The notes beneath the pieces are model-generated. The model was not told where the DNA came from. It saw only the letters and a program-made list of their open reading frames with translations, and did not search any database. This document shows positions 41,665 through 43,418 of a DNA stretch of 61,857 nucleotides, one piece after another. The stretch is from Folioceros fuciformis (Eukaryota): contig JBNGIO010005482.1 in the NCBI GenBank assembly GCA_049999805.1, positions 1-61,857 on the forward strand, written 5' to 3'. How positions within the stretch are numbered: position 1 is the first letter of the stretch; each line of letters begins with the position of its first letter. The position numbers were made by a program, and so were the translations under genes.

Positions 41665-43418
41665 TCAGGCAGGTGGCAGAGGTGCTGAAGCATCGGTCGC
41701 CGGTGGTATAGCATCAACAGGAGGCACTGCCACCGGTGGTACAGCACCAACAGGAGACAGTGACGCCGGTGGTGTAGCATCAACAGGAGGCACTGCCACC
41801 GGTGGTGTAGCACCAGGGGGAGGCAGTGTCGCCGGTGGTGTCGCATCAACAACGGGAGGTGCAGGCGGAGGCGTGGAATCCGAGGGAGGAGGAGGAGGAG
41901 GAGGAGGAGGAGGAAAAGAAGCAGCAGAAGGACCAGGAGGGGGAGGAGAGAAAGGATCAGCAGGAGGAGAAGTCAAGGGGTTGACGACCCGGCAATTGGT
42001 CCTCACCTCGCCGTTGGGGCCAGTGAGAACCCCGACATTGCTGAGGGCGAAGATGGAGGCGGAGAATTGCGAGAAGAAGGCGCGCTGGCTGGCGGCAAAC
42101 TTGAGCACGTAGGGCTTGGTGCGGGGATCGAAGAGAAGGTACTGATCGGACTGGAAGAGGCCGCGGCTGGCGAGCAGGTCGACGTAGTACTGGTTGTCGA
42201 ACACGTTCGGGGTGAGCGGATCGTTGTCCACCCGGAACGTGCTCACGCTACAGTTGGCGAGGATCTGTGCCAGGTAGGAGGGAGGAATCGTGGGGTCGGG
42301 GAGGCCAGTTCCATTGAAGTTGGTGAGCCGCCTGCCGAAGGCGCGGCATCCGGCCTTCCCGATGGTGTGCGCGCCAGAGAGCGCAACCGCGTCCGCCACC
42401 CCGAGTCCCAGCCCGGAGAAGGACGCCAGCACCTTGTCCGCGAAGCTGTTGGGCGACGGGTTGTTGGCTATGGCTGCGCTCAGGCTGCTCACCCGCCCGT
42501 CTTTCCTGCCCAGGTACACCGGATAGAACGGGCCGTCCCTCTGCACACACCGCATCGCACAGTCGTCAAGTCAGGAAGGAAGGGGTTCAAGGCTCATCTC
42601 ATCGTCCCACAACATCCCTCCCGCTCTTGAGAATCCAGAGAATGAACTTCCTGCAAGATCGAGTGAAGACAAATATCGCGATCACAAGGCTCGACGTACC
42701 AGATACACGGCGTCTCGCACGCTCAGGACGAGAATGTCTGCGCACGAGACCGTGCCCGGACACACTGCCTCCAACTGAGCTTTGATGTCGTCGATGATGG
42801 TGAAACCGTCCAAAGATCTAAATTAAAACAGTACAAGATCTTTAGTGTCGTGGGGGAGTAGCTCAAATGGTAGAGCGCCCGTTTCGCATACGGGAGGTAA
42901 CGGGATCGATGCCCGTCTTCTCCAGAAAACATATCCCAGATCGAAGAATTATCAATGCCCACAGTTTTCCTTTAGGTAAGCATCACCATAACTCGTCTTT
43001 TACCTGTTTGGCAGAGCATCTTTTTCCCCGCTATTGGTTGGAGTGCTGTCGATCATGACTGAGGCGTCCACACCCTGCCCAACAGAATCCCAATGCGATG
43101 TCTCGTCAAAAAAATTGCAATCGCCCAGGCAAAGGAAAGCTCGCAGGGGAAATAATCGATTCGGAAGGAGGAACGGATTTGGAGTACATTGACGACGGCG
43201 TCGTGGAAGAGTAGGCGGAGCAGGTGCGCTGCGATCTGCACATCCTTCCTCAGATTTCTGTGGATGGTGGACAGCACGATGCTGGGGAACTGCGGGCACG
43301 ACCTCCTGTAGTACTGCGGGCGGAGGCCTGCCGGAATCGGGACGCCGTCCGCCACCGAGTTCGTCAGGAGCAGCAGCAGCAGAGCCAGGCCGAGTGTCCG
43401 GATTGACACCGCCGCCAT
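41665..43418 (-). CDS. Class III secretory peroxidase, paralog B, with Pro-rich C-terminal tail (exons 43418-43188, 43074-43004, 42817-42700, 42540-41665)
   Basis: Same motifs as paralog A; extra GT-AG intron at 43003-42818 restores [18 protein letters not shown] in frame. Confidence 0.93.
42852..42924 (+). tRNA. tRNA-Ala(CGC): tRNA-Ala(CGC), inside an intron of the opposite-strand peroxidase
   Basis: 73-nt cloverleaf: acceptor GGGGGAG/CTTCTCC with G3:U70 Ala determinant, D arm GCTC/GAGC, anticodon stem CCCGT/ACGGG with loop TTCGCAT, T arm ACGGG/CCCGT, discriminator A; T4 run at about 42965. Confidence 0.95.

Follow-up and report, generated by a model that had tools for sequence, protein, structure and literature searches.

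Introduction

Intronic transfer RNA (tRNA) genes are already well known in animals. In C. elegans, 44–47% of tRNA genes are intronic, as chance predicts, with 56% on the host's strand, and the same survey reports an effect of the host promoter on the intronic tRNA and tRNA–host pairings that are conserved in related species (PMC4999229). Here, we analyse a 61,857-nucleotide (nt) stretch of Folioceros fuciformis DNA (the window: contig JBNGIO010005482.1 of assembly GCA_049999805.1, positions 1 to 61,857 of the forward strand), in which a class III peroxidase gene, paralog B, is interrupted by 186 nt that hold a tRNA-Ala(CGC) gene on the opposite strand, while its sister gene, paralog A, is continuous at the same site. 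As a candidate for intron gain, the case is modest and testable. With a probability of roughly 0.7, we read it as a complete nuclear-type tRNA-Ala(CGC) gene lying antisense in a short, lineage-specific U2-type intron of paralog B, with the history proposed in the Discussion.

The two components of the locus have been described separately. Class III peroxidase genes contain from none to three introns at conserved positions, and their products have eight conserved cysteines in 4 disulfides, according to the sections of the source used here (PMC8481831). Plant nuclear tRNA genes are A/T-rich in the 50 nt upstream, where CAA occurs in 78–82% and TATA in 22–32% of them, and 67–72% have poly(T) within 50 nt downstream, again from the relevant sections of the source (PMC11700998). 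The gain of spliceosomal introns is poorly documented in plants, where gains are rare and usually too old for tracing. Introns also arise from filler DNA at break repair and from short interspersed elements (SINEs). In an intron-gain review, the passages on tRNA do not name a tRNA gene as an intron source, and the term 'SINE' does not occur in the text consulted (PMC11282704). We found no description of a spliceosomal intron made by a tRNA gene in the open-access literature, which is weak evidence of absence.

Results

A predicted extra intron in one of two peroxidase paralogs

The window contains only two peroxidase genes, paralogs A and B. We compared the window with contigs of sequencing runs at a likeness of at least 80%, using DNA (run X1) and RNA (run X3) of organism A, DNA of organism B (run X20) and RNA of organism C (run X10). 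The parts of the two genes are as follows, a slash marking a junction here and below.

36265–36528, 36679–36867 and 36964–37575, plus strand: exons of paralog A, continuous at 36749/36750
43418–43188, minus strand: exon 1 of paralog B, with its ATG at 43418, covered by X3 record 26 with 0 differing letters
43187–43075, minus strand: intron 1 of paralog B, canonical, GT..AG
43074–43004, minus strand: exon 2a of paralog B, 71 nt, from translation of the coordinate-defined exons
43003–42818, minus strand: predicted extra intron (intron 2) of paralog B, 186 nt, GT..AG, phase 2
42817–42700, minus strand: exon 2b of paralog B, 118 nt, joined to exon 3 by RNA contigs
42699–42541, minus strand: intron 3 of paralog B, the family's canonical intron 2, GT..AG
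42540–41665, minus strand: exon 3 of paralog B, which encodes a proline-rich tail at the C terminus; its homology matches carry PF00141

At the site homologous to the extra intron, paralog A is unbroken and reads ...CCCAACAG/GTCT... at 36749/36750. In paralog B, direct reading gives a 5′ splice site CAG/GTAAAAG and a 3′ splice site TTTAATTTAG/ATCT. A repeat finder arrived at the same layout independently, as the inverted-repeat arms I2 and I3 adjoin in paralog A and lie 186 nt apart in paralog B. Exon 2 of paralog A measures 189 nt, which equals the 71 + 118 nt of paralog B; therefore, the interruption is exact, and coding bases were neither gained nor lost. Sequence, exon lengths and repeat arms thus agree with a preliminary description of this DNA, which had reported a continuous paralog A and a 186-nt interruption of paralog B.

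All 3 introns of paralog B are bounded by GT..AG. When 43003..42818 is taken out, paralog B has an uninterrupted open reading frame (ORF) of 431 codons that is colinear with paralog A, while retention of the 186 nt places a TAA straight after exon 2a. The gene's identity as a class III peroxidase is indicated by exon 3, which matches 115 PF00141 proteins; searches for orthologous proteins with exon 3, at near and longer lengths, found none closer than 46%. The two paralogs share ~57% protein identity in exon 3 and 72% nucleotide identity, and their duplication is old because protein identity is only ~57%.

The antisense tRNA-Ala(CGC) gene

The tRNA gene and its flanking signals fill the predicted intron as follows.

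42818–42851, plus strand: upstream flank of the tRNA, 34 nt, ~70% A+T (42818–42850), with TAAAT at -32 and CAA at -17
42852–42924, plus strand: tRNA-Ala(CGC), 73 nt, antisense to the host gene (ARAGORN; Rfam RF00005)
42965–42968, plus strand: first T4 run, the likely RNA polymerase III (Pol III) terminator, 39 nt downstream of the tRNA
42998–43001, plus strand: second T4 run, 72 nt downstream of the tRNA

ARAGORN predicted a single tRNA in the whole window, a tRNA-Ala(cgc) at 42851–42925 on the plus strand. The Rfam RF00005 match to 42852–42924 scored 57.7 bits against a gathering score of 29 and spanned model positions 1–71 of 71, with all helices standard and no non-standard pair flagged. 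Alanine identity in tRNAs follows from a G3:U70 pair and discriminator A73. Both are present here, with an acceptor strand GGGGGAG paired with CUUCUCC and followed by A; CCA is not encoded. The preliminary description was right that a complete tRNA-Ala(CGC) lies on the opposite strand, as both programs report, and overstated the matter in calling the intron 'mostly' tRNA, since the gene accounts for 73 of the 186 nt (39%). Its downstream T-run also took a different form: T4 runs are present, but the nearest one begins 39 nt away.

The surroundings of the tRNA have the features of plant nuclear tRNA genes, namely an A/T-rich upstream region, CAA and TATA-like motifs and poly(T). The 50 nt upstream are 66% A+T, with CAA at -17 and -40. 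Read on the host strand, the upstream flank forms the U-rich 3′ end of the intron and its AG, and the complement of the second T4 run is the AAAA of the host 5′ splice site GTAAAAG.

Other copies of the tRNA occur in the sequencing runs. They part from the window exactly at 42852 and 42924, where loose contig ends begin, and sequencing depth drops back beyond the tRNA. A multi-copy tRNA whose flanks are unique to this site argues against a SINE, and we rejected a tRNA-derived SINE as the source of the insert: the copies diverge at the tRNA ends, and within the window the flanks have neither repeat nor target duplication.

Two of these copies are worth recording in their own right. X3 record 25 (1,329 letters), from the run in which spliced contigs also occur, contains another tRNA-Ala-like copy with 4 differences from 42851–42925 and flanks unlike those in the window. 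Either an RNA polymerase II (Pol II) transcript may contain this second tRNA, or the contig may be carried-over DNA. X10 record 10, from organism C, aligns with 42851–42924 and is a tRNA-Ala copy with an 18-letter insertion behind 42891 that resembles a duplicated stretch of the tRNA. This copy may be a contig artefact or a pseudogene.

Intron positions in other class III peroxidases

We compared paralog B with 80 other class III peroxidase loci, which come from plant DNA in metagenome contigs and are all at most 45% identical to it; they serve as an outgroup and not as orthologs. The first 330 residues of paralog B were aligned with these loci by tblastn, and the extra intron falls at residue 101. 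This residue was not covered in 11 of the 80 loci, and none of the 69 loci that cover it is interrupted there. In 53 of them (32 distinct sequences), the alignment runs uninterrupted through residue 101 and an intron is found elsewhere. The other 16 (14 distinct) are likewise uninterrupted and have no intron in view, being cDNA-like (complementary DNA), intronless or partial, and are therefore uninformative on intron position.

Where the other loci do have introns, these break the alignment near residues 77/78, 140/143 and 196. The breaks at 77/78 and 140/143 coincide with both introns of paralog A and with introns 1 and 3 of paralog B, and the third canonical intron, near residue 196, is missing from both paralogs alike. 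The absence of any interruption at residue 101 in the covering loci (0/69) makes the extra intron a novelty of paralog B's lineage, and it confirms the non-canonical position given in the preliminary description. By this alignment evidence, the extra intron is derived and represents a gain when set against the peroxidase family. We also ran ARAGORN on 60 of the 80 loci and found no nested tRNA in a peroxidase gene; the sole tRNA in these 60 loci, in locus L036, stands outside the gene, on its upstream side.

The encoded proteins are themselves unusual. Both paralogs depart from the eight-cysteine rule of class III peroxidases, with 6 of the 8 positions present, as counted by the residue numbering that we take to apply to these cysteines. 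At the place where the family has a Cys pair after the distal His, FHDAVVNGVDAS is read in both paralogs (43188–43210; 36505–36528 and the following exons). Since the pair is absent from both, one of the four conserved disulfides seems to be missing from the subfamily formed by A and B. Paralog B ends in a proline-rich tail of ~100 residues (41665–41950, minus strand), which derives partly from 33-nt tandem repeats at 41698–41862, and paralog A has only a short tail of Ser, Ala and Pro. To judge from its translation, paralog B is a peroxidase fused to an extensin-like tail.

Composition and uniqueness of the intron flanks

The non-tRNA part of the extra intron has a G+C (GC) content of 35%, compared with 49–57% in the four other introns of paralogs A and B. 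This value lies at the 5th percentile of 111-nt windows taken across the window. A minimal tRNA unit (34 + 73 + 79 nt) could already fill the extra intron.

The preliminary description had proposed a BLAST search for further copies of the intron flanks. None emerged: short-word BLAST against the window and the 80 loci returned chance matches of 9–14 nt only. The window likewise contains no introner-like, near-identical introns or terminal repeats. Exon duplication was considered as the intron's source and rejected on the contig comparison and the flank BLAST. Apart from the complement of the tRNA, the intron gives no sign of a special RNA structure (z = -0.87; 39 of 200 shuffles fold as well). 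The motif AGATCTT occurs twice, 21 nt apart, within 42818–42845 on the minus strand; one copy is in the intron, beside the upstream flank of the tRNA, and the other spans the 3′ junction as AG/ATCTT. The pair could be chance, a small duplication or a trace of microhomology.

Related organisms and transcripts

DNA contigs of organism A (X1) match the window without a single difference over 41948–42880 and break within the tRNA. From organism B, X20 record 17 (492 letters, 33 of them differing) carries exon 3, the intron, exon 2b, the intron flank and 29 nt of the tRNA (to 42880). It has an 80-letter intron where 146 bases of the window are skipped, and all of its inserted letters (10/10) fall within 42819–42851. 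Record 19 of the same run (1,646 letters) carries exon 1, and its last 29 letters lie at the 3′ end of the tRNA (42924). Records 17 and 19 together indicate that organism B shares the layout of exon, intron and antisense tRNA, with a flank that evolves freely. Exon divergence from the window in DNA contigs of the related organism is ~8–12%. As far as these contigs show, intron and tRNA were already arranged in this way before the split from organism B. The survey of orthologs proposed in the preliminary description has thus yielded a single relative, organism B, whose possession of both intron and tRNA fits either order of arrival.

Organism C differs from the window by ~10–12% in its exons (66/563, 15/120 and 24/249 letters), and nearly all of its listed differences are common to organism B. 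In organism A, X3 RNA contigs (records 21, 24 and 26) cover exons 1, 2b and 3 with 0 differing letters. One X3 contig contains the joint 42540>42700, which skips 159 nt with ends CT..AC, or GT..AG on the gene strand, and the same joint occurs in X10 at a depth of 106. Therefore, the host gene is transcribed, and the intron neighbouring the tRNA-bearing one is spliced.

At the tRNA-bearing intron itself, no contig covers or joins 42817/43004; the X3 contig stops at 42805, X1 has no cover above 43091, and both are silent on its splicing or absence. The ends of the X10 RNA contigs are a weak hint. The exon 2b contig reaches only to 42819, so that it holds the exon and the AG that the intron end and exon 2a have in common; the exon 1 contig breaks off after 70 further loose letters, which equal exon 2a. 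In the DNA runs X1 and X20, by contrast, contigs continue to 42880. Such ends fit a branch between spliced and unspliced molecules. We infer that the tRNA-bearing intron is spliced because the ORF is intact only on its removal, a stop codon stands at its start and the contig ends point the same way. The spliceosomal intron of the preliminary description consequently stands as a clean phase-2 GT..AG insert whose removal restores the ORF, but its junction 43004/42817 is crossed by no contig.

Other features of the window

The rest of the window contains the following genes and repeats.

2724–2874 and 3269–3399, plus strand: arrays of G-rich 10-nt repeats of the GGCAGGGCAC / GGGAAGGGCA type
8651–11500, minus strand: an intronless gene for a 949-codon PPR protein with an E motif and a DYW deaminase domain, of the type of organelle RNA-editing factors; it has internal 306-nt repeats, and its best named relatives, ~45% identical, are from a lycophyte and a leafy liverwort, which places the source among non-seed land plants
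17304–18188, plus strand: an exon that matches sigma-70 region 1.2 and is likely part of a plastid sigma factor gene
32430–35370, plus strand: pyruvate kinase exons, just upstream of paralog A
44302–44869 and 50799–51313: a diverged segmental duplication just upstream of paralog B, 78–84% identical, its copies ~6.5 kb apart
47080–49670: repeats with a 1.5-kb spacing, between the copies of the segmental duplication
55063–61219: a copia-type long terminal repeat (LTR) retrotransposon with gag, SH3-like and RVT_2 ORFs at 55808–59827 (minus strand), flanked by direct repeats (55063–55236 and 61045–61219) that are 93% identical; it is probably degenerate because its reverse transcriptase is split over two ORFs

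Discussion

Proposed mechanism and points against it

In the mechanism that we propose, the tRNA would be an independent Pol III unit: its promoter boxes would lie within the gene, the A/T-rich sequence upstream would contribute TATA-like and CAA motifs, and the T4 runs at +39 and +72 would serve as terminators. The host gene would be transcribed by Pol II in the opposite direction, and GT-AG splicing would discard the entire 186 nt, including the antisense tRNA, leaving a peroxidase message colinear with that of paralog A. The intron would have been gained in this lineage, no later than the split from organism B. We have a slight preference, at no better than even odds, for one insertion of DNA that already bore the tRNA unit over two separate events; single-insertion and two-event histories, the two alternatives of the preliminary description, stand at roughly equal odds, and organism B, the only relative seen, already has both features. 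It is a tentative proposal that the intron was born from a tRNA unit inserted in a peroxidase exon, with antisense Pol III signals serving as splice signals, and that the tRNA has since been kept functional in at least two related organisms.

Several observations weigh against this account. The first terminator, at 39 nt, is somewhat far downstream of the tRNA. T-loop position 54 of the tRNA is A, where the Rfam consensus has U; an A at this position is a variant of eukaryotic tRNA-Ala. The GC contrast is based on four introns only, and plant introns tend to be A/T-rich anyway. Without its tRNA the intron measures 113 nt and the sibling introns 96–159 nt, and this normal size means that a later insertion of the tRNA fits equally well. 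Within the 61.9-kb window, we saw no donor locus, no target-site duplication and no second copy of the flanks. A single run, X10, of a single study supplies the contig-end hint.

Alternative histories

The explanation that we place first, though tentatively, is that exon 2 received a whole tRNA-Ala unit, for instance as filler DNA where a double-strand break was joined, and that this unit itself made the intron. Such an insertion would have been tolerated since the antisense T-run supplies GTAAAAG and the A/T-rich upstream flank supplies a U-rich tract ending in AG. It accounts for an intron that is derived (0/69) and for the identity of the sole tRNA-bearing intron with the sole non-canonical one, a coincidence that is unlikely under random tRNA insertion. 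The low GC of the flanks (35% compared with 49–57% in sibling introns) also favours it, as do the complementarity of the 5′ splice site to the second T4 run and of the intron 3′ end to the upstream flank with TAAAT and CAA, the intron's size, which does not exceed that of the minimal tRNA unit, and the unchanged number of coding bases. However, the window contains no donor locus, no target duplication and no microhomology beyond AG, and the other tRNA copies in the sequencing-run contigs have different flanks. An exon insertion that is spliced out precisely is a rare outcome a priori, and a precedent was not found in the open-access literature.

Ranked next, and likewise short of even odds, is a history in which an intron of ~113 nt was gained by another route and a tRNA-Ala gene or retro-copy landed in it later, tolerated since it is spliced out. 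It has in its favour a residual length within the sibling range and the frequency of intronic tRNA genes where these have been surveyed, as in the C. elegans data cited above (PMC4999229). Moreover, flanks that evolve freely, with 10 inserted letters in 34 nt in organism B, would blur the signal of an original intron. On the other hand, this history calls for two events, each of them rare, within one stretch of 113 nt, and it leaves to coincidence both the unusual A/T-richness of the flanks among the introns of paralogs A and B and the match of both splice sites to signals of the tRNA unit. We consider it unlikely that the intron, whether or not it then held the tRNA, already existed before the duplication that gave rise to paralogs A and B and was lost precisely from paralog A, for example by recombination with cDNA. 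The paralogs are old enough (~57% protein and 72% nucleotide identity), and intron loss has occurred in the lineage, as the third canonical intron near residue 196 is already gone from both; still, a gain and a loss are required where a gain alone suffices, and paralog A retains both flanking introns. It is very improbable that paralog B is dead or mis-modelled and the 186 nt a disruptive, unspliced insertion, given an ORF intact over four exons, RNA contigs with 0 differing letters on exons 1, 2b and 3, the removal of the neighbouring intron and an ortholog that is expressed in organism C with exons ~88–90% conserved.

Implications

The intron is short and clearly derived, a tRNA gene with its own flanks can explain its full length, and it is common to at least two related organisms. 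If the insertion of a tRNA unit into the exon did make it, Pol III signals would double as splice signals in antisense, and tRNA genes would be a previously unrecognised, ready-made source of introns. If relatives show the bare exon but never the intron without the tRNA, tRNA units would form a new class of intron donors. If the two-event history is true, the locus would be a plant example of the nested tRNA genes of nematodes, useful for studying the interplay of Pol II and Pol III, and unsurprising.

Comparison with known systems

Like the nested tRNAs of animals, such as C. elegans sup-7 in C03B1.2, the tRNA-Ala(CGC) gene is a Pol III gene within the intron of a Pol II gene, and the pairing of tRNA and host is conserved across related species, here organisms A and B (PMC4999229). 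The C. elegans genes are a model for possible crosstalk between Pol II and Pol III at this locus, by analogy; interference between convergent Pol II and Pol III transcription, suggested in the preliminary description, is speculative. Unlike them, it has a plant host, and the host intron is itself a novelty at the level of the gene family and barely larger than the tRNA unit; the consulted parts of the C. elegans survey claim no link to the origin of introns (PMC4999229).

Among human genes, nuclear introns contain look-alikes of mitochondrial tRNAs that are proposed to influence splicing. These share with our locus a tRNA-shaped sequence in an intron but come from mitochondrial DNA inserts, whereas the tRNA-Ala described here is of nuclear type, with G3:U70 and Pol III signals (PMC7722341, for the look-alikes). 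The likeness to introners and transposon-derived introns is that of a new, non-ancestral intron formed by A/T-rich DNA of foreign origin, with GT and AG provided by its two ends (PMC11282704). A multi-copy element, terminal repeats and target duplication, which belong to those systems, were not seen within the window, and the payload is a working-looking tRNA gene. Finally, the first two canonical introns of class III peroxidases in general (near residues 77/78 and 140/141) persist in paralogs A and B. The two paralogs differ from the family in having neither the third canonical intron nor one conserved cysteine pair, and paralog B differs further in its fourth kind of intron, at residue 101.

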